DNA of 64,000 nucleotides from Patescibacteria group bacterium (GTDB lineage: Bacteria; Patescibacteriota; JAHJAL01). The stretch lies in NCBI GenBank assembly GCA_049322675.1, contig JBMORM010000014.1, positions 15,896-79,895 on the forward strand, given 5' to 3'. Positions 2,379-49,857 of the stretch are shown here, piece after piece. Numbering within the stretch: the first letter of the stretch is position 1; each line of letters opens with the position of its first letter. The notes below the pieces were generated by a model that ran no database searches, was not told the origin of the DNA, and saw only the letters and a program-made list of their open reading frames with translations. The position numbers and the translations under genes are program-made.

Positions 2379-3515
2379 TTTTCCCTTCTTTTTTAGCCTA
2401 ATTAATATTTATTAAGATCAGTCTATCAATTTAAATTTTCAATTTCCAATTCTCAATTCTCTAATAAAGCAAATTAATTATCGAAAATTACGTCAGTATT
2501 TATTTGAAAATTGGGCATTGGGAATTTTTTGAAAATTGAAAATTGGAAATTGAAAATTGCCTCATGGGCATAAAAATAAGACCGCTGGCAAATGCGCCCT
2601 TCTTTATTAAAAAAATTTGGCGGCCTAGCGGTCTCATTGACCTCTTCGTAGCCTCCTTAACCCTTAACACAATGGTTGAAAGCTAGGGATAACTATATGA
2701 AAAGGCGTCTTTTTATCTTCCCTGCCGGTTAAATAAAAAGAAATTTTCAAACTGTTCTTCCGGCTTCCATGATACATCTCCAAAATCAAAACATAATTAT
2801 TATATTTGTCAAGGCAAGAAGATTCAAAACCCCACAAATATTTTTTGATTTCCAAGATGTACCATGGTTGCCCGCTCATCCGAAAATGAACCAGGTAGGC
2901 AGGTACCTTTCACCGAACAGTAAGAAAATCTAAAAACTAAGATTTTTGTTTTTGTTTTTTTGTCCTACCTCGTCGAAAGTCCATATTTATAAATAATTGG
3001 ACGACTTGGTAAAACATTTAGCCCCCTATATAAAAGATAGAAGACCTTCTCTTAGTTCTTAGATTCTCTTACCATTGCGGTGCTTTTTTTCGAACAGTTA
3101 TAAATTGTTAAAGTTTTATTTTTCTTTTGTTGTTTCTTTTGTCTGTTTTTTTGTTTTCATTACAATATAACAAACCATGTAAAATAAGTCAATAATATCT
3201 ATCAAACATAAAAAGAAAAACAACTTGAAAATTATCTCTGGGTGAGAAAAAACACAAAATAATATTCAAAAAAATAATCCAAGTTTTCCACAAGAACAAA
3301 ATATATACTTCCCCAAAAAAAATTTCGGTTTGACTTATTTTTTTATGACTGTTAAAATTAAAATAATCTTTTCAATCCAGGCGGCAAAATTATTAAAGAT
3401 TTAATCTTGCTCACCACATCAAAAATCAGTTCGTGACTATTTTTTAATTAAACCTCTTAAGATAATAAGAGTACATTATTATTTTTTTGTACTCGAAAAA
3501 TGGGGAGTTATTTTT
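2379..3515. other. 1.1-kb noncoding region upstream of rpoB with heptad repeat arrays and long imperfect hairpins
   Basis: No ORF of 60 aa or more on either strand; GAAAATT/GGAAATT arrays at 2429-2462 and 2531-2558; 10-bp stem GACCGCTGGC/GGCGGCCTAGCGGTC around 2590-2640; extended imperfect inverted repeat 2915-3090 ending GCGGTGCTTTTTTT; hairpin GAGTACA..TGTACTC plus GGGGAG immediately before the rpoB ATG. Confidence 0.5.
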
Positions 3516-6500
3516 ATGGCAAAAAAAATTAATCCTCCTGGACCATCCGATGTCCAACGAGTTTATTTTGGTAGTAGAAGACAATGGATCGATTTACCCG
3601 ATCTAAATACCATGCAAATAAACTCTTACAATTGGTTCTTTCAGGAAGGATTGCGTGAATTATTCGACGAAATCACTCCAATCGATGATTTCACCGGCAA
3701 AACCTTGTCTCTACAATTTGGCGATTACTATCTAGACCAACCAAAACATGATGAACACGCCTGTCGTGAAAGAAATTTTACCTACAAATCTGCCCTACGT
3801 TGTCAGGTTTCTCTTATCAATAAAGAAACCGGCGAGATTAAAGAGCAAGAAGTTTTCATGGGTGATTTTCCGCTCATGACTTCATCCGGTAGTTTTATTA
3901 TTAACGGTATCGAAAGAGTAGTCGTTTCACAGATAATCCGTTCACCAGGCGTTCTTTTTACATCTGAACGTTCGGCCGGTATCGAATATTTTGGCGCAAA
4001 AATTATTCCTGATCGCGGAGCTTGGTTGGAATTGGAAACCAACAATAAAAACATCATCTATGTCAAAATTGACCGCAAACGAAAAATACCCGTTACCACT
4101 CTTTTGCGTGCTTTTGGTCTTTCTTCGGATCAAGAGATAATCGATACCTTTAAAGATGTAAATAATAATCCCGATCGTAATTATATTAATGCTACTTTGA
4201 CCAAAGATCCCGCTGACAACACTCAAGAAGGTCTGTTGGAAGTGTATAAGAGAATCAGACCCGGAGATTTGGCTACGGCCGAAAATGCTCAGACACTGAT
4301 CGAAGATATGTTTTTCAATTTTCGCCGCTATGATTTTGGCAAAGTTGGACGCTACAAAATCAACAAACGCCTAGAATTGGATATTCCTCAGGACAAACAA
4401 CATCGCACTATCACTCTCAAAGATTTGGTGGCTGTAGTTAAAGAAGTTATTAATCTCAATAATATCGGCGGTCCTGCTGACGATATCGATAATCTCAAAA
4501 ACCGTCGTGTTCGTTCAGTCGGCGAATTGGCTCAAAAAGCCTTGCGAGTCGGTTTGTTGCGTATGGAAAGAATCGTAAAAGATCGTATGAGTGTTTCCGA
4601 CATCAATACAGTTACTCCTTCCGCCCTGATCAATGTTCGTCCACTTACCGCCGCTTTACAAGAATTTTTTGCCAGCTCTCAATTCTCTCATTTTATGGAT
4701 CAAACCAATCCCCTGGCTGAACTAGAAAACAAACGCCGTATTACCGCTATGGGTCCCGGTGGTCTATCCAGAGAAAGAGCCGGCTTTGAAGTACGCGACG
4801 TTCATCATTCGCACTATGGTCGCCTCTGTCCGATTGAAACTCCTGAAGGCTCCAATATTGGTCTCGTCAGTCATTTGGCATGTTTTGCTTCTATCAACGA
4901 ATATGGATTCATTGTTACTCCCTATCATCCAGTCATTAGAGAACTGGAAAATAAGGCCGATCTTATTTATGGTCAAATCACCCGTGGCGACATTGTCGAT
5001 CCCAAAAATGAAAAAGTAGTCGTGCCTGACAATACCAAAATCACCAAAGAACTGGCCGCAAAAATTTCCAAACTTGATTTATCCAAGATACCGATCAAAC
5101 CACAAGTAAAACAAGAAGTATTATACCTAGATGCCCAAGAAGAAGAAAACTTTGTTATTGCTCAAGCCGATATCTTGTTGGATGAAGAAAATCGTTTCGT
5201 TGATGACATAATTGCGGCTAGAGCCAAAGGTGAACCTGATTATGTTCCCCAAGAACAAATCGACTACATAAGCGTTTCTCCCAAACAAATTTTTTCTGTG
5301 GCTACTTCCCTAATTCCGTTTGTAGAAAATGATGAAGGTGTGCGCGCTTCAATGGGATCAAACATGTTGCGACAAGCTGTCAGCCTTGTTAAACCTCAAA
5401 CCCCGGTTGTCGGCACCGGTATCGAAGAAAAAGCCGCTTTGGATTCGGGTGAAATAGTTGTCGCCGAAGATGACGGAGAAGTAATTTCCGCGGCCGGAAA
5501 CGAATTGACTCTTCAGTACAAAAACAAACAACTCAAAACATACCCTCTTCGCAAATTTGTTAAATCAAACCAAGGCACCTGCATCAATCAACGAATTGTA
5601 GTTGAAAAAGACGAAAAAGTTAAAAAAGGTCAACTGTTGGTTGACGGCACCTCAACTGATCATGGTGAATTGGCTTTAGGACAAAATATTATGGTCGCAT
5701 TTATGCCCTGGGGCGGCTACAACTTCCAAGATGCAGTTATTATTTCCGAGCGACTTGTTCATGAAGATCGTTATTCTTCAATTCATATCGAAACCCATTT
5801 GATCGAAGTTCGGGAAACCAAACTTGGCCCCGAAGTTATTACACGCGATATTCCCAATGTTGGTGAAGAAGCTCTAAAAAATCTGGACGGAGACGGTATT
5901 ATTCGTTTAGGCGCCGAAGTAACTACTGGCGATATTCTCGTTGGTAAAATCACTCCCAAAGGTGAAAGCGAATTAACCGCCGAAGAAAAACTCTTGCGAG
6001 CTATCTTTGGTGAAAAAGCGCGCGACGTCAAAGACACTTCCTTGCGACTACCTCATGGTGAACGTGGAAAAATAGTTAATATCAAAGTTTTTACCAGAGA
6101 TAAAGGTGATGAACTGGCAACTGGAGTTATTAAAGCCATCGAAGTTAGCGTTGCTCAACTCCGTAAAATTTCCGTTGGTGACAAAATGGCCGGTCGTCAC
6201 GGTAACAAAGGTGTCATTTCCCGAGTACTTCCAGTCGAAGATATGCCGTATATGCCTGACGGTACTCCTGTTGATATTATTCTCAACCCCCTTGGTGTTA
6301 TTTCACGTATCAATTTGGGTCAGGTCTTAGAAACTCACCTCGGTTGGGCTGCCAAAACTCTAGGTTACAAAGTAGCCTGTCCTGTATTTGAAGGGGCATC
6401 ATGGGAAGAAATAAAAAAAGAATTAATCAAAGCCGAATTACCCGGTTCCGGCAAAATAACTCTGTATGATGGTCGTAGCGGTGAAGCATTTGATCAAGAT

Positions 6501-13096: not shown

Positions 13097-13263
13097 TCCA
13101 TTTGCAAAACTCAAATTCAAAACAAAGATTGTAATTTTTTTCCTTTCGTTTTTTTGAGTTTTGTCCGCCAAGATAATATTTCTCCGGCGGATAATTTTTT
13201 TCTTACGCTAGCCGACAAACAACAAAAAATTTAATTATTCATTGTTAATTATTAATTCAAAAA

Positions 13264-31396: not shown

Positions 31397-31499
31397 CCCT
31401 CACGGGACCGAACTGCTGCTGGCAATGACCAATTTTCAAACAAATTCAATTCTAGGATCATTCTTTTTTGTATTTGTTTGGAAATTGAGCCTTTTTTGG
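31397..31499 (-). repeat. dispersed intergenic element, copy 1 (short form), with conserved ends shared with 62839-63142
   Basis: 31397-31426 CCCTCACGGGACCGAACTGCTGCTGGCAAT is the exact reverse complement of 63113-63142; 31478-31499 TTGGAAATTGAGCCTTTTTTGG is the exact reverse complement of 62839-62860; flanked by heptad arrays at 31352-31392 and 31500-31560. Confidence 0.6.
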
Positions 31500-31564
31500 A
31501 AATTGAGAATTGGAAATTGGAAATTATCAATTCATTCTTAATTATTAATTGTTAATTAATTATT

Positions 31565-32146
31565 ATGTCGCATTTATTTTTAATAACCGGCGTTCCCGGT
31601 GTCGGCAAAACTTCCATCGCCAACGCCGTTGCCGCCAATTTCAATTTACCGTTAATCAATTTCGGTGACATTTTGTTCAAAAAAATCAAAGCCGCCAAAA
31701 TAGGTATCAAAGAAGTTGACGAAATCAGAGTCAAGTTACCTTTCAAACAGTACAAAAAATTCCAAGTCGCTACCGCCCGCGAGATTGCCAAAACCAAGGG
31801 CGACAAAATAATCACTTCTCATCTTTCCATTGATACTCCAACTGGATTCAAACCGGGCTTCCCGCAAAATGTTATCGATATTTTTTCTCCCAGTATTATT
31901 TTTTCTATTCAATCCCCGGCCGACGAAATCAGAAAAAGACGCATGTCCGACAAAGACACTCGTCATCGTGGACAAAAACTGGAAAAATGGATCGAATTTC
32001 ACCAATCCTTCAACCGCGCCCTCGCCGCCAACTACGCCTTCTACACCGGCAATTACGTCTATCCAGTCCAAAATCGTCAGGGAGAAATTGCCAACTGCAT
32101 CGAGGAAATCAACGAAGTTATTGGACAGATACTGAAACAAAAATAA
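31565..32146 (+). CDS. adkA: adenylate kinase, archaeal type (AdkA family)
   Basis: LITGVPGVGKTS P-loop; SHLSIDTPTGFKPGFP; RRMSDKDTRHRG; VQNRQGEI; these align to remembered Methanococcus/Methanocaldococcus AdkA blocks (VTGVPGVGTT, THSTxKTPKGYLPGLP, RRxxDETRxRD, QNRNG); no bacterial Adk LID or NMP-binding motifs. Confidence 0.75.
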   Translation: MSHLFLITGVPGVGKTSIANAVAANFNLPLINFGDILFKKIKAAKIGIKEVDEIRVKLPFKQYKKFQVATAREIAKTKGDKIITSHLSIDTPTGFKPGFPQNVIDIFSPSIIFSIQSPADEIRKRRMSDKDTRHRGQKLEKWIEFHQSFNRALAANYAFYTGNYVYPVQNRQGEIANCIEEINEVIGQILKQK

Positions 32147-32175
32147 GACAATTTCCAGTTTCCAATTTCCAGTTT

Positions 32176-32197
32176 CCAAAAAATGTCCAATTTCCAA
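32176..32197 (+). repeat. partial third copy of the left-end motif of the dispersed element (CCAAAAAATGTCCAATTTCCAA)
   Basis: Differs from CCAAAAAAGGCTCAATTTCCAA at three positions; embedded in the heptad arrays between adkA and map. Confidence 0.4.
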
Positions 32198-32308
32198 TTC
32201 TCAATGGATGCGATCCGTTTGGAAATTGTGTCTTGGAAATTCATTGGAAATTATACCGTTGTTTACAAAAATGAATATATTTTTTTGTTCCCAATTTACA
32301 TTATTCCA

Positions 32309-33070
32309 ATGTCATTATTCAACAATCCCACTTTAGACCAAAAATACACCGCCATGAAAACCGGCGGCCAAATTCTCGCCCGAATCATCTATGAACTAAA
32401 AGATCTCGTCGAGCCCGGCATGTCGGCCTCCCACCTTGACCAGATTGCCTATCAAAAAATCATCGCCGCCGACTCCAAGCCGGCCTTTTTGGGTTATCAA
32501 GGTTTTCCCAACAGTTTGATCGTCAGCCTCAACAACGAAGTTGTTCACGCTATTCCCAAATCGCACAAAATTATTAATGTTGGAGATTTGGTTACTCTTG
32601 ATCTTGGTTTGTATTATCAAGGTTTTTGCACCGACATGGCTATCAGTTTTATTTTAGGCAAAAAAAACAATCCCGTTGCTCAAAATCTCCTTCTGGCCGC
32701 CGAAACTGCCTTGGACAACGCCGTAAATCTGATTGAACCCGGAATACAGATTGGCGACATCGGCCATATTGTTGAAAAAACCGCCAAGGAATTCAAAGTT
32801 AAGGTAGTTTTCGATTGTGCCGGTCACGGTGTGGGCAAAAAAATCCACGAAGAACCAACAATTCCCAACTTTGGCCGAACGAATACCGGGCCTCAATTAA
32901 CAGTCGGCCAAACCGTGGCCATCGAACCAATTTTCGCCGTCTCCACCAATTATTTTTCTCACCAACCGGATGGCTGGACTTTGGTTACCGAAGATGGCTC
33001 TTTGGCCGCCCAGGCCGAACATACCATCATCATTACCCCCCAAGGTAACGAAATTCTGACCCTCAGATAA
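32309..33070 (+). CDS. map: methionine aminopeptidase, type I
   Basis: MetAP-I metal ligands in context (D..D, H, E, E): VTLDLGLYYQGFCTDMA, AGHGVGKKIHEEP, AIEPIF, EHTIIIT; the ORF-track start at 32183 would translate the intergenic repeat array, so ATG 32309 (MSLFNN) is preferred. Confidence 0.88.
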   Translation: MSLFNNPTLDQKYTAMKTGGQILARIIYELKDLVEPGMSASHLDQIAYQKIIAADSKPAFLGYQGFPNSLIVSLNNEVVHAIPKSHKIINVGDLVTLDLGLYYQGFCTDMAISFILGKKNNPVAQNLLLAAETALDNAVNLIEPGIQIGDIGHIVEKTAKEFKVKVVFDCAGHGVGKKIHEEPTIPNFGRTNTGPQLTVGQTVAIEPIFAVSTNYFSHQPDGWTLVTEDGSLAAQAEHTIIITPQGNEILTLR

Positions 33071-33188
33071 TAAAATTTTTTCCCATGTCTCACAAAATAT
33101 GTTTAAAAATTAAAAATTAAAAATTAAAAATTTTTCCTGATATTGTGTCTTGCGTCCCTCTAATAAAAGTGATAATATTAATCGTGCT

Positions 33189-33443
33189 ATGAAAAATAAG
33201 AGTGCCAAAAATAAAGACGTTGCCAAGAAATCAAAGGAAGTGATAGAATTAGAAGGTGTAGTAGATGAGGCACTTTCCAATGGCATGTTTCGTGTCAAAT
33301 TGGAAAATGAACATTTTATTATCGCTGTTATTTCCGGACGGATGAGAATGAATTTCATTCGGATTATGCCCGGCGATAAAGTCAAAGTCGAAATGACTCC
33401 CTACGATCTCAGTAAAGGTCGTATTACATTTAGGTACAAATAA
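33189..33443 (+). CDS. infA: translation initiation factor IF-1
   Basis: [66 protein letters not shown], an S1-like IF-1; ATG at 33189 is preferred over the TTG at 33150 inside the (AAAAATT)n array. Confidence 0.88.
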
Positions 33444-33459
33444 AATTATAAATCGTCCC

Positions 33460-33591
33460 ATGAAAGTTCAATCTTCAGTCAAACCTCGTTGCAACAAATG
33501 TACAATCATCGTCCGCCGCTCCAAACCGGGCAAGAAAAAAATTGTCCGCGTCATTTGCACCAATCCTCGTCATAAACAACGACAAGGCTAG
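33460..33591 (+). CDS. rpmJ: 50S ribosomal protein L36
   Basis: Manual translation [43 protein letters not shown] (43 aa); below the ORF-track size cutoff. Confidence 0.85.
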
Positions 33592-33600
33592 CTTTTTAAA

Positions 33601-33689
33601 TTTCCAATTTCCAATAATCAATTTCCAATAAATTTTCCATTGTCCCAACAAAATATCATTTGGAAATTGAAAATTGAAAATTGAAAATT
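33601..33689. repeat. inverted pair of heptad arrays (AATTTCC x3 ... GGAAATT/GAAAATT x4) flanking a 27-nt spacer between rpmJ and rpsM
   Basis: 33601-33634 AAATTTCCAATTTCCAATAATCAATTTCCAATAA; 33662-33689 GGAAATTGAAAATTGAAAATTGAAAATT. Confidence 0.65.
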
Positions 33690-33709
33690 TATATTTAATT
33701 TTTACGAAC

Positions 33710-34093
33710 ATGGCTCGTATTTCCGGCGTTCAAATCCCAACTGAAAAAAGAGTAGAAATTGCTCTTACGTATATTTATGGCATAGGCTTAACCAGCAGCC
33801 AGAAAATTCTCAAAATTGCCAATATCAGTCCTGACACCAGAGTCAAAGATCTAACCAATGAACAATTGGACAAAATTCGTGAAATAATCGACAAAAATCA
33901 CCTGGTCGAAGGCGTTCTTAGACAAAAAATTTCTACCAATATCAAACGACTCAAAGAAATTGGTTCCTACCGAGGCGATCGACACAACCGTCGCTTACCC
34001 CTACGTGGTCAACGTACTCGCACCAATGCCCGTACTCGCCGCGGTCGCAAAATGACTGTCGCCACTTCCAAAAAAGCCCCGACCAAGACCTAG
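33710..34093 (+). CDS. rpsM: 30S ribosomal protein S13
   Basis: [26 protein letters not shown]...; ATG at 33710; the ORF-track TTG at 33674 lies in the repeat array. Confidence 0.95.
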
Positions 34094-34099
34094 TATAAA

Positions 34100-34198
34100 A
34101 TTTCCAATTTCCAGTTTTCAATTTCCAAATCTATAACCAAATTATCCGTATATCCCCTCAAAGTATGTTTGAAAATTGTGAATTGAAAATTGGAAATT
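34100..34198. repeat. inverted pair of heptad arrays flanking a 41-nt spacer between rpsM and rpsK
   Basis: 34100-34128 AATTTCCAATTTCCAGTTTTCAATTTCC; 34170-34198 GAAAATTGTGAATTGAAAATTGGAAATT. Confidence 0.65.
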
Positions 34199-34231
34199 AC
34201 TCATTATTATTTTTTTAATTATTCCTCACCC

Positions 34232-34651
34232 ATGGCCGACATTAAAGAAAAAAAATCAACCAACGAAAAAGTCTCTTCCAAGAAAAAAAAGAAGAGAAAA
34301 ATATCTGTAATCTCAGGAATAGCTCATATCCAATCAACATTCAACAACACCATTATTACTATTACCGACAAAAAAGGTAATGCCATTTCTTGGGGATCAA
34401 CGGGTTTAGCCGGCTTCAAAGGCACCAAGAAAAGCACACCATACGCCGCCTCAGTTGCCGCCAAAAAAGCTGCTGAAAAGGCCAAACAAGTTGGTTTAAA
34501 AGAAGTCGAAGTTCTTGTCCAAGGTGTTGGTTCTGGTCGCGAATCTTCTATTCGCGCTCTGTATGCCGAAGGTATCGACATTCTTTCTATCAAAGATATT
34601 ACTCCAGTTCCTCACAATGGTTGCCGAGCCCGCAAACCCCGCCGCGTCTAA
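34232..34651 (+). CDS. rpsK: 30S ribosomal protein S11
   Basis: [30 protein letters not shown]...; ATG at 34232 (MADIKEKK). Confidence 0.95.
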
Positions 34652-34704
34652 GTATTTTCCCTTTTTTTTGAAAATTATAAATTATAAATTGAAAATTAAT
34701 TATT

Positions 34705-35331
34705 ATGGCCTACAAATACCCCAACTGTCGTCTCTGTCGTCGCGAAGGTGAAAAACTTTTTCTAAAAGGTGCGCGTTGTCAATCACAAAAATGTGCCTTG
34801 GTCAGAAAAAGCTATGCCCCCGGAGATCATGGTGCCGCCTCAAAAAAAGGCAAACCTTCCTCCTACGCCATCCAATTGCGAGAGAAACAGAAGACCAAAA
34901 GAATTTACGGTTTGCGCGAAGGTCAATTTTTCAAATACTATTCTTTGGCATCCAAGAAAAAAGGTGTTACCGGTTTGGTTTTGCTTCAATTGCTTGAGAC
35001 AAGACTAGACAATATAATTTTCCGTCTCGGTTGGGCTCCTTCTCGCCATACGGCACGTCAAGTTGTTTCGCATGATCATATTCAGGTAAATGGACACACC
35101 GTTAATATTCCTTCATATCAAGTGAAAATTGGCGACAAGATTACTGTCAAAGAGTCGTCAAAAACTAAAAAGTATTTTAAAGAAACTCTTGATCTTGGTG
35201 ATTTTAAACCACCGATTTGGTTAAAGGCCAACTCATCAGCTCTTACCGGTGAAATTATTACTTTACCCAGCAAAGACGATATTGATAGCAATATCAACGA
35301 ACAATTAATTATTGAATTTTATTCTCGTTAA
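34705..35331 (+). CDS. rpsD: 30S ribosomal protein S4
   Basis: Zinc-ribbon CRLCRREGEKLFLKGARCQSQKC; S4 domain RLDNIIFRLGWAPSRHTARQVVSH. Confidence 0.95.
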   Translation: MAYKYPNCRLCRREGEKLFLKGARCQSQKCALVRKSYAPGDHGAASKKGKPSSYAIQLREKQKTKRIYGLREGQFFKYYSLASKKKGVTGLVLLQLLETRLDNIIFRLGWAPSRHTARQVVSHDHIQVNGHTVNIPSYQVKIGDKITVKESSKTKKYFKETLDLGDFKPPIWLKANSSALTGEIITLPSKDDIDSNINEQLIIEFYSR

Positions 35332-35349
35332 CGTTTTTGGAGGACTAAA

Positions 35350-36273
35350 TTGGACATTATCGTCTTGCCAGAAATTAAATGCATCAAGGAAACTGACAAT
35401 CAGGCGACCTTTGTCGTCGAACCTCTTTATCCTGGATACGGTGTCACTATTGGCAATTCCTTGCGTCGCACTTTGCTTTCTTCGCTTGAAGGAGCGGCTA
35501 TCACTTCGGTTAAAATCGAAGGCGCCACTCACGAATTCTCAACCCTTCCGCACATAAAAGAAGATTTGGTTGAAATAGTATTAAATCTCAAAAAAGTTCG
35601 TCTAAAAATGCATTCCGACGAGCCAATCAAACTCCAACTGTCAGCCAAAAAATCAGGACCAGTCACTGCCGGTATGTTTTCCAAAAACCCCGATGTCGAA
35701 ATCGTAAATCCGGATTTAATATTGGCTAATCTTGACAACAATAAAGGCAAAATGGATATGGAAATCACCGTCGAAAAAGGTCGTGGCTATTTACCTACCG
35801 AACAACGAGAGAATGAAAAAAATCCGATCGGGACAATTGCCATTGATGCACTTTTTAATCCAGTTACCCAAGTTAACTTCAATGTTGAAAACACACGCGT
35901 GGGCGGTCAAACCAATCTGGACAAACTGACAATTGATATTACAACTGACGGCACTGTCAACGCCAAGGATACTTTGGACTACGCCGCCAATATTCTTGTT
36001 TCTCATTTCTCATTGTTTACTTCCGAAGGCATTGCCAAGTCTGCCCAAAAGATAGCAAAAGTTGACAAAGAAGACGTCGCCGAAGATATCGAGTCGATAA
36101 AAGTTGAAGAGATCAATCTTTCCACCCGAACACTCAATGCTTTGTTAAAAAATGATATCAAAACAATTGGCGACGTATTCAAACATTATGAAGATCTCCC
36201 GAGCCTACCCGGACTGGGAGCAAGAGCAATTACAGAAATAAAAGAAGCCATTGCCAGATTACAAGACAACTAA
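35350..36273 (+). CDS. rpoA: DNA-directed RNA polymerase subunit alpha
   Basis: FVVEPLYPGYGVTIGNSLRRTLLSSLEGAAI; TTG start with GGAGG 8 nt upstream. Confidence 0.94.
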   Translation: MDIIVLPEIKCIKETDNQATFVVEPLYPGYGVTIGNSLRRTLLSSLEGAAITSVKIEGATHEFSTLPHIKEDLVEIVLNLKKVRLKMHSDEPIKLQLSAKKSGPVTAGMFSKNPDVEIVNPDLILANLDNNKGKMDMEITVEKGRGYLPTEQRENEKNPIGTIAIDALFNPVTQVNFNVENTRVGGQTNLDKLTIDITTDGTVNAKDTLDYAANILVSHFSLFTSEGIAKSAQKIAKVDKEDVAEDIESIKVEEINLSTRTLNALLKNDIKTIGDVFKHYEDLPSLPGLGARAITEIKEAIARLQDN

Positions 36274-49747: not shown

Positions 49748-49814
49748 AAAGACGACTCCCCAAAATCTCCATCAAATATTCCCCTATATCCGAATATCCC
49801 AACAAAATATCGTT

Positions 49815-49857
49815 TGGAAATTGGAAATTGAGAATTGGAAATTGAAAATTAAAAATT
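49815..49857 (+). repeat. heptad array (GGAAATT GGAAATT GAGAATT GGAAATT GAAAATT AAAAATT) between two minus-strand genes
   Basis: Six consecutive 7-bp units read directly from the sequence. Confidence 0.7.

Follow-up and report, generated by a model that had tools for sequence, protein, structure and literature searches.

Adenylate kinase is essential, and secY-adk-map is among the most conserved gene orders of bacteria. Which gene, then, occupies the slot between secY and map in a Patescibacteria group bacterium whose ribosomal cluster lies in a stretch of 64,000 nucleotides (contig JBMORM010000014.1, positions 15,896 to 79,895; the whole stretch is called the window below), and how did it come to be there? 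The slot holds adkA, a gene of the archaeal adenylate kinase family. It is likely that this gene was gained by horizontal transfer, that it replaced the bacterial adk within that very slot, and that it now serves as the adenylate kinase of the cell. An enzyme from the other domain, unrelated in sequence to the usual occupant and presumably of the trimeric type instead of a monomer, is now found in exactly that slot. The gene and its two anchors are:

31565..32146, + strand: adkA, archaeal-type adenylate kinase (open reading frame (ORF) call; ATG start; 193 amino acids plus stop codon)
26832..28106, + strand: secY, bacterial type (Pfam SecY, 345 bits), the upstream anchor of the slot
32183..33070, + strand: map, type I methionine aminopeptidase (TIGR00500, 241 bits), the downstream anchor

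Family and fold of the protein

The protein is a member of the archaeal AdkA family, not of the bacterial Adk family, as an earlier note, made from the letters of this DNA and its translated reading frames, had proposed; profile, solved-structure and fold searches agree on this point. In a profile search the NCBIfam model for archaeal adenylate kinase (NF003122/PRK04040) matched with 153.0 bits (E 6.6e-45), the match running from residue 4 to 186 of the protein and covering 4-187 of the model's 189 positions. The bacterial Adk models of NCBIfam reached 16-23 bits, on the P-loop only, and past that loop no sequence relationship with classical Adk was detectable. For TIGR01351, which describes classical Adk, the score was 22.7 bits against a cut-off of 168 and was confined to residues 5-44, and a hidden Markov model (HMM) built from the Adk proteins of neighbouring Patescibacteria gave 17.9 bits. 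PF00406 (ADK) did not match at E 0.01 or better in the Pfam scan, in which the only matches were to the generic AAA_17/AAA_18. Profile placement, which the note had named as the way to overturn its assignment, favours AdkA.

The four signature blocks on which the proposal had been built are all present in the translation of 31565..32146, far beyond chance: ITGVPGVGKTS (residues 7-17), DTPTGFKPGFP (residues 90-100), RRMSDKDTRHRG (residues 125-136) and VQNRQGEI (residues 168-175). The accompanying statement that there is no LID needs correcting: the protein carries the short arginine-rich LID of the archaeal type. A phmmer comparison with AdkA of M. voltae (1KHT) gave E 4e-26. Nine sequences of the PDB were found at E < 1e-15, eight of them archaeal adenylate kinases and one a designed nanoparticle; the archaeal ones come from three Methanococcus species, Methanococcus (Methanotorris) igneus, Odinarchaeota, Sulfolobus and Aeropyrum, with E-values from 4e-26 to 2e-16 against 1KHT, 1KI9, 3H86, 7OWE, 6PJW, 1NKS and 6LN3. 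JGI annotates some of the close relatives as "adenylate kinase".

The same picture is obtained from the fold. An AlphaFold2 model of the protein, built on a 13-sequence alignment of its close relatives, had a pLDDT (predicted local distance difference test) of 84 and a pTM (predicted template modelling score) of 0.83. When it was compared with the PDB by Foldseek, ranks 1-37 consisted of archaeal adenylate kinases plus the one designed nanoparticle, with template modelling (TM) scores of 0.71-0.85 overall and of at least 0.73 when only the natural archaeal kinases are counted. Shikimate kinase, hCINAP/AK6 and classical Adk came next, at TM ~0.6 and with E-values seven orders of magnitude weaker. 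The archaeal enzymes of M. voltae (1KHT), M. thermolithotrophicus (1KI9), M. igneus (6PJW) and Sulfolobus acidocaldarius (1NKS) align over the full length at 26-33% identity and TM 0.75-0.85, which bears out the suggested collinearity with the AdkA sequences of Methanococcales. Common to the protein of the window and archaeal AdkA are the P-loop GVPGVGK, the active-site histidine, the GF-PG loop, the LID pattern RRxxDxxxRxR and the HQxxNR helix. Classical Adk is a monomer in which an extra catalytic arginine is delivered by a proline-kinked helix (PMC9635829); in the model of the protein studied here helix 143-161 is predicted to be continuous, and there is no proline in the segment.

The family, the fold and the chemistry of AdkA are already known. 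What is new, as far as our literature search shows, is the bacterial host, the displacement of adk at precisely the secY-map junction and its sharp phylogenetic boundary; no description of AdkA in the candidate phyla radiation (CPR) or Patescibacteria was found in the full text searched. Literature matches to COG2019 proved to be database version strings and not reports of AdkA.

Distribution of AdkA among Patescibacteria

AdkA proteins close to that of the window form one small bacterial clade. A word-indexed search returned 12 close relatives of ~190-205 amino acids that are 52-94% identical to it, and one further relative (P0354) came to light in a subsequent profile search. When 1.84 billion representatives were scanned exhaustively with HMMER, 433 had an E-value below 1e-10; the bacterial clade was represented by only two clusters at 50% identity (319 and 300 bits), after which the scores dropped to 161 bits or less, the best non-bacterial match to the clade profile being P0015 with 161 bits. 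In total the clade comprises ~14 AdkA clusters at 90% identity and two at 50%. Its members are linked by 55 alignment columns that are invariant across 13 clade sequences.

The gene order secY-adkA-map(-infA-rpsM) was found in bacterial ribosomal clusters in the window and in L001/L014, L003, L010, L011, L012 and L013, of which L010 is the most divergent readable member (AdkA 52% identical); samples and assemblers differ among these loci. The same secY and map junctions are shared by eight or more independent contigs, which stem from several projects (JGI, ENA, NCBI, Logan) and whose AdkA proteins are 52-95% identical. In L001, L010, L011, L012 and L013 adkA lies directly downstream of secY. 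The earlier note had placed the gene in the slot after secY: its position between secY and map stands, whereas in the window it does not adjoin secY, since an IS110 transposase and a cysteine-rich ORF lie between the two:

28247..29555, + strand: IS110-family insertion of ~1.3 kb, peculiar to this genome, with its transposase ORF at 28553..29542 (Pfam DEDD_Tnp_IS110 and Transposase_20; NCBIfam transpos_IS110, 188 bits)
29619..31358, + strand: cysteine-rich ORF of 579 amino acids, without a family match

The cysteine-rich ORF also separates secY from adkA in the close relative L003, in which AdkA is 95% identical and the IS110 insertion is absent. On a further contig (P0194; SecY 70% identical) secY is followed by a putative adkA, a gene for 193 amino acids with AAA_17/AAA_18 and no ADK match.

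The distribution of AdkA and Adk follows that of SecY. Compared with SecY of the window, 18 SecY clusters fall at 70-100% identity, then there is a gap, and the rest are at 57% or less; the closest named SecY proteins outside the clade are those of Berkelbacteria (52-53% identity). With a SecY alignment as query, 80 loci were obtained from a metagenome scan, and the DNA downstream of secY was translated and searched with an AdkA HMM and an Adk query. The latter was a sequence of E. coli Adk and was backed by an HMM made from 51 Patescibacteria Adk ORFs. Two of the three survey loci with SecY at 74% identity or more carry AdkA, and the third has no room downstream of secY; all readable loci with SecY at 70% or more have AdkA after secY. 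Among the survey loci with SecY at 54% or less and enough downstream sequence, classical Adk follows secY in 57 of 62, and the AdkA HMM found AdkA after secY in none of these 62. The nearest outgroup locus that was read by called genes (L094; SecY 57%) has the order secY-ADK(PF00406)-map-infA.

Thus the survey that the earlier note had suggested confines AdkA to relatives with SecY at 70% identity or more, with Adk in 57 of the 62 nearest other loci, and it supports the proposed replacement in situ by a non-orthologous gene. The same slot (secY-X-map-infA) is occupied in the clade and in its neighbours by sequence-unrelated genes for what is presumably the same reaction, both encoding P-loop nucleoside monophosphate (NMP) kinases, and the ancestral type is found in the sister lineages. 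This pattern is what one displacement in place, at the root of a single shallow lineage, would be expected to leave.

The five remaining loci of the 62 have a broken cluster: downstream of secY adk is absent in all five, and map also in four. They were checked by six-frame translation and phmmer, with SecY and L15 as positive controls. Locus L068 has the order secY-infA-rpsM, without adk and map. In L043, L044, L045, L049 and L093 there is no adk or map within 0.8-4 kb downstream of secY.

The gene is under strong purifying selection in the clade. Between adkA of the window and its 95%-identical relative the ratio of non-synonymous to synonymous substitution rates (dN/dS) is 0.06 at dS 0.48. 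The GC content of adkA (0.43) and that of its third codon positions (GC3, 0.49) are similar to those of the neighbouring map gene, which together with the low dN/dS points to an old, ameliorated and functional gene. Classical Adk was found neither in the 64-kb window nor, with the HMM from the 51 Patescibacteria ORFs, in 148 kb of clade DNA.

The case is a well-delimited one of an essential gene displaced across domains, although it overturns or opens no major question. The neighbours that retain the ancestral adk give a sharply dated boundary for the event. The gene adkA could be a synapomorphy-like marker for a Patescibacteria lineage near Berkelbacteria.

The active site and the role of the enzyme

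Is the protein equipped to be the adenylate kinase of its host? The best reference is OdinAK (7OWE), which has the same fold (TM 0.73-0.81) and whose active site is formed by K13, R51, H85, R124, R134 and R137 (PMC9635829). The histidine is a conserved feature of archaeal adenylate kinases, its place being taken by arginine in the classical ones (PMC9635829). A MAFFT alignment places these six residues at K15, V51, H86, R125, R133 and R135 of the protein of the window, so that five of the six are kept, the histidine included. The parts of the site are:

31583..31615, + strand: P-loop ITGVPGVGKTS (residues 7-17), invariant in the clade; K15 corresponds to OdinAK K13
31715..31729, + strand: VDEIR (residues 51-55), counterpart of the archaeal RDxxR of the AMP-binding domain; V51 corresponds to OdinAK R51, and R55 is kept
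31814..31822, + strand: T84-S85-H86, counterpart of the archaeal D-T-H; H86 aligns with OdinAK H85
31937..31972, + strand: short arginine-rich LID RRMSDKDTRHRG (residues 125-136); R125, R133 and R135 correspond to OdinAK R124, R134 and R137

The LID includes R125, R126, D129, R133 and R135. H86 is invariant in the bacterial clade and the position is a histidine in 98% of the archaeal representatives; R55, one helical turn from position 51, is likewise invariant in the clade. Conservation reaches 80% or more among 143 archaeal representatives in 24 columns; the protein agrees with 21 of these, and at the other three the whole bacterial clade carries a fixed change: R to V at position 51, D to T at 84 and T to S at 85. 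Consequently RDxxR has become VDEIR and DTH has become TSH, which sets the protein apart from archaeal AdkA in general and from OdinAK, with its R51, in particular. OdinAK has in addition a long loop near the C-terminus for nucleoside triphosphate (NTP) selectivity, and its sequence alignment with the protein of the window stops at residue 166 of the latter.

On this basis AdkA would catalyse ATP + AMP <-> 2 ADP as the adenylate kinase of the lineage, as a probable trimer of the archaeal type, with K15, H86 and the LID arginines R125, R133 and R135 carrying the chemistry as in the solved archaeal adenylate kinases. The ATP:AMP phosphotransferase activity is suggested by homology, by the slot that the gene occupies and by purifying selection. 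The gene would be co-transcribed with the surrounding translation and secretion genes of the spc/alpha cluster, and the genome would presumably carry no other adk.

Several observations weigh against this reading. The match to PRK04040 lies at 153.0 bits, 2 bits under the curated equivalog cut-off of 155, and one relative is named only "AAA family ATPase" by NCBI. Position 51 is Val across the bacterial clade (Ile in one member), so that the sixth active-site residue is lost, and the Asp of DTH is Thr across the clade (Val in one member). In archaea the arginine at position 51 is found in 91% of the representatives and is absent in 13 of 143, and the Asp of DTH is absent in 18 of 143; both changes occur together in seven of the 143, against a chance expectation of 1.6. 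This excess of joint losses suggests that the two residues are structurally coupled. Finally, P0019, an archaeal protein with the same paired loss, is encoded next to a classical ADK gene, and a protein with the variant site is therefore not necessarily the sole adenylate kinase of its cell.

The archaeal variants with the same paired change as in the clade, position 51 being hydrophobic and position 84 Thr, include P0015, P0019 and P0053. They lie on archaeal contigs in varied contexts. P0053, with Leu and Thr at the two sites, is encoded in the canonical order secY-adkA-membrane protein-cmk; since it holds the canonical slot, the variant active site is compatible with a primary adenylate kinase role. 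P0015 is encoded beside a cytidylate-kinase-like gene, away from secY. On contigs L095/L096 (5001-6208) the AdkA-like P0019 stands head-to-tail with the classical ADK (PF00406 plus ADK_lid), so that one archaeal genome carries both types of adenylate kinase side by side. Taken together, these sequence comparisons are compatible with the variant site belonging to a primary adenylate kinase, without guaranteeing that role.

A functionally shifted AdkA, with the AMP-site arginine and the Asp of DTH lost as a coupled pair, is possible, but we regard it as doubtful: the protein might be the sole kinase, working with a five-residue site, or might have a changed or broadened NMP/NTP specificity, and it might derive from a minor archaeal subfamily with the same paired changes, possibly from a DPANN or co-habiting archaeon. 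If so, it would be a natural experiment on which parts of an active site are dispensable when an essential bacterial gene is replaced. In any case the R to V and D to T changes provide a natural variant for probing the active-site requirements of trimeric adenylate kinases.

The principal alternative to adkA as the replacement for adk is an AdkA-like paralogue whose phosphoryl-acceptor site has been altered by R51 to V and D84 to T, acting as another or a broad NMP or dNMP (deoxynucleoside monophosphate) kinase, while a classical adk resides elsewhere in the genome. The loss of one of the six active-site residues throughout the clade agrees with this, as do the contexts of P0019, beside a classical ADK, and of P0015, off the secY slot. 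OdinAK demonstrates that broad NTP specificity is possible in the family, and the five outgroup loci of 62 with adk outside the secY cluster indicate that relocation of adk occurs in Patescibacteria. However, P0053 lacks both residues and nonetheless holds the canonical archaeal secY-adkA-cmk slot, R55 is invariant one helical turn from position 51, and in all clade members the gene is found exactly at the adk position, under strong purifying selection. No Adk was seen in the 148 kb of clade DNA, and given the small genomes of Patescibacteria a redundant second kinase is less likely. We therefore consider a paralogue of this kind improbable, and continue with AdkA as the likely adenylate kinase of the lineage.

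Origin of the gene

By their neighbouring genes, all outgroup AdkA loci that were inspected are archaeal. L007, from a Micrarchaeota metagenome-assembled genome (MAG), has the order L30-L15-SecY-AdkA-L34e followed by further archaeal genes, L009 has SecY-AdkA-L34e-Cbf5, and in L097 L32e and L19e are accompanied by SecY-AdkA-cmk; these three loci confirm that archaeal adkA can follow secY, as the earlier note had stated. In L008 the neighbours are Spt4, S24e and S27e, and in L095 a neighbour is PAC2. The clade resembles archaeal genomes in having adkA immediately downstream of secY (with an interposed ORF in the window and L003), and differs from them in its bacterial host and in its flanks, which are map and infA in place of the archaeal membrane protein/cmk or L34e. 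Every named homologue from outside Patescibacteria in the final profile search was archaeal (Methanopyrus, Thermoplasmata, Nanoclepta, Nanopusillaceae, Nanobsidianus and Methanobacteriota).

Trees were made by neighbour-joining (NJ) with BLOSUM, without a root, and by bootstrapped NJ with 200 replicates. The bacterial AdkA clade is monophyletic in 99% of the replicates and appears, from these sequences, to be nested among archaeal ones. As its sister group the archaeal P0031 was found in 49% of the replicates, Micrarchaeota in 29%, a Nanoarchaeota group in ~10% and the P0015 group in 10%. Since the bootstrap does not place the variants with the paired change as sister to the clade (10%), the shared changes at positions 51 and 84 are possibly convergent. 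The archaeal proteins closest in sequence, found in and around a cluster of Thermoplasmata, reach 39-40% identity. A DPANN donor is possible; the suggestion that the case bears on gene sharing between CPR and DPANN is not established, with no sister group above 49% and the closest named proteins coming from MAGs of Thermoplasmata. The case adds one core housekeeping gene to the archaeal genes present in CPR bacteria, but alone says nothing on deep CPR-DPANN relationships, the sister group lacking firm support.

In the otherwise archaeal-looking cluster of P0028 one partial member (HID15446.1, from a contig of 2 kb) carries the label "Candidatus Atribacteria bacterium" in NCBI. It may reflect mis-binning of an archaeal contig or a further acquisition by bacteria; we have treated the label as unreliable binning.

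The course of events would then have been that the ancestor of one narrow lineage of Patescibacteria acquired adkA horizontally from an archaeon, presumably once, and that the incoming gene took over the site of the resident bacterial adk, between secY and map in the ribosomal spc/alpha cluster. The earlier note had left room for retention of an ancestral archaeal-like gene, that is, for an ancestral secY-adkA arrangement that was inherited vertically in a CPR lineage without horizontal transfer. The position after secY is indeed shared with archaea, and the NJ tree is unrooted with deep branches that lack firm support. Nevertheless, the clade is tiny (SecY at least 70% identical throughout), and all sampled neighbouring lineages of Patescibacteria have Adk in the slot, so that many independent replacements would be needed. 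Moreover, adkA alone is archaeal-like: the flanking genes secY, map, infA and rpoA (C-terminal domain included) all have their matches in bacterial families. Vertical retention is thus rejected as very improbable, and horizontal acquisition followed by displacement in place is preferred.

Membership of another P-loop kinase family, such as shikimate kinase, AK6/hCINAP or cytidylate kinase, is effectively refuted: the weak AAA_17/AAA_18 matches, 31 bits for archaeal cytidylate kinase and the second-tier folds of shikimate kinase and hCINAP (TM ~0.6) might hint at it, but the AdkA model matches over the full length with 153 bits against at most 31 bits for any other specific family, and the Foldseek E-values weaken by seven orders of magnitude after the archaeal adenylate kinases. 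An assembly chimera or archaeal contamination of a bacterial contig, for which nothing specific speaks beyond the metagenome-assembled source of the sequence, is rejected as next to inconceivable, given the same bacterial junctions in at least eight independent contigs and the agreement of GC and GC3 with the neighbouring genes.

Other features of the locus

SecY of the window is 100% identical to that of an NCBI MAG named "Patescibacteria group bacterium", and the closest loci of the genome collections are likewise so labelled. The remaining features of the cluster are:

upstream of secY: genes for L18, S5 and L15 (Pfam)
31358..31525, + strand: structured spacer upstream of adkA, with two inverted GGAAATT heptamer arrays and a stem of ~30 bp
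33150..36273, + strand: infA, rpsM, rpsK, rpsD and rpoA of the alpha operon (Pfam)

Downstream of map, rplQ is also present, after rpoA. The true start of map is probably the ATG at 32309, giving 253 amino acids; the TIGR00500 match begins at residue 54 of the ORF, and the homologue in L003 has 253 amino acids. No gene for L30 fits into the 63-bp gap between S5 and L15, an absence that is typical of CPR.

The boundaries of the IS110 insertion (28247..29555) were taken from the pairwise alignment with L003, which lacks it. NCBIfam labels the family "RNA-guided transposase". IS110 elements encode a bridge RNA in the non-coding stretch 5' of the transposase ORF, and in the window a non-coding stretch of ~300 bp is found 5' of that ORF. 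The cysteine-rich protein of 579 amino acids had no match in Pfam, NCBIfam or the PDB. It contains repeated CxxC-like and "NC..C" motifs and two internal segments of the form YC(I/L)xNxQ(Y/C)TKEEYEQ. In L003 an ORF of 581 amino acids (2988-4733) is located at the equivalent place, whereas the slot lacks such an ORF in L001, L010, L011 and L012.

A scan for promoters and terminators around adkA gave counts no higher than in shuffled sequence, and Rfam gave no match in the window. The spacer at 31358..31525 has a predicted RNA fold of -73 kcal/mol (z = -9.5). It is one of several intergenic sites in the window with arrays of 4-5 tandem heptamers (TTGGAAA, TTGAAAA, TTGAGAA), the others being 33597-33691, 34099-34198, 2434-2558 and 62813-63116, with further sites at 23833-23863, 32149-32204 and 49814-49857. 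The arrays often form inverted pairs with stems of ~30 bp and loops of 30-110 nt (~220-270 nt at 62813-63116). The pattern TTGGAAATTGGAAATT, with at most 2 mismatches, occurs 36 times in the window against 0.76 expected. The arrays could represent an element resembling MITEs (miniature inverted-repeat transposable elements) or REP (repetitive extragenic palindromic) sequences, or a processing or terminator structure internal to the operon.

A second type of repeat is found directly before many start codons of the ribosomal cluster, in the form of AT-rich tracts with a period of 7 nt (ATTAATT, TTATTAA, AAATTAT, TTAAAAA; ~4-5 copies). Such tracts precede adkA (31530-31566), secY (26786-26816), L15 (26206-26233), S5 (25548-25572), rpsD (34672-34698) and infA (33103-33132), and others lie at 23222-23255 and 13231-13257. 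They may constitute a lineage-specific translation-initiation or spacer signal.

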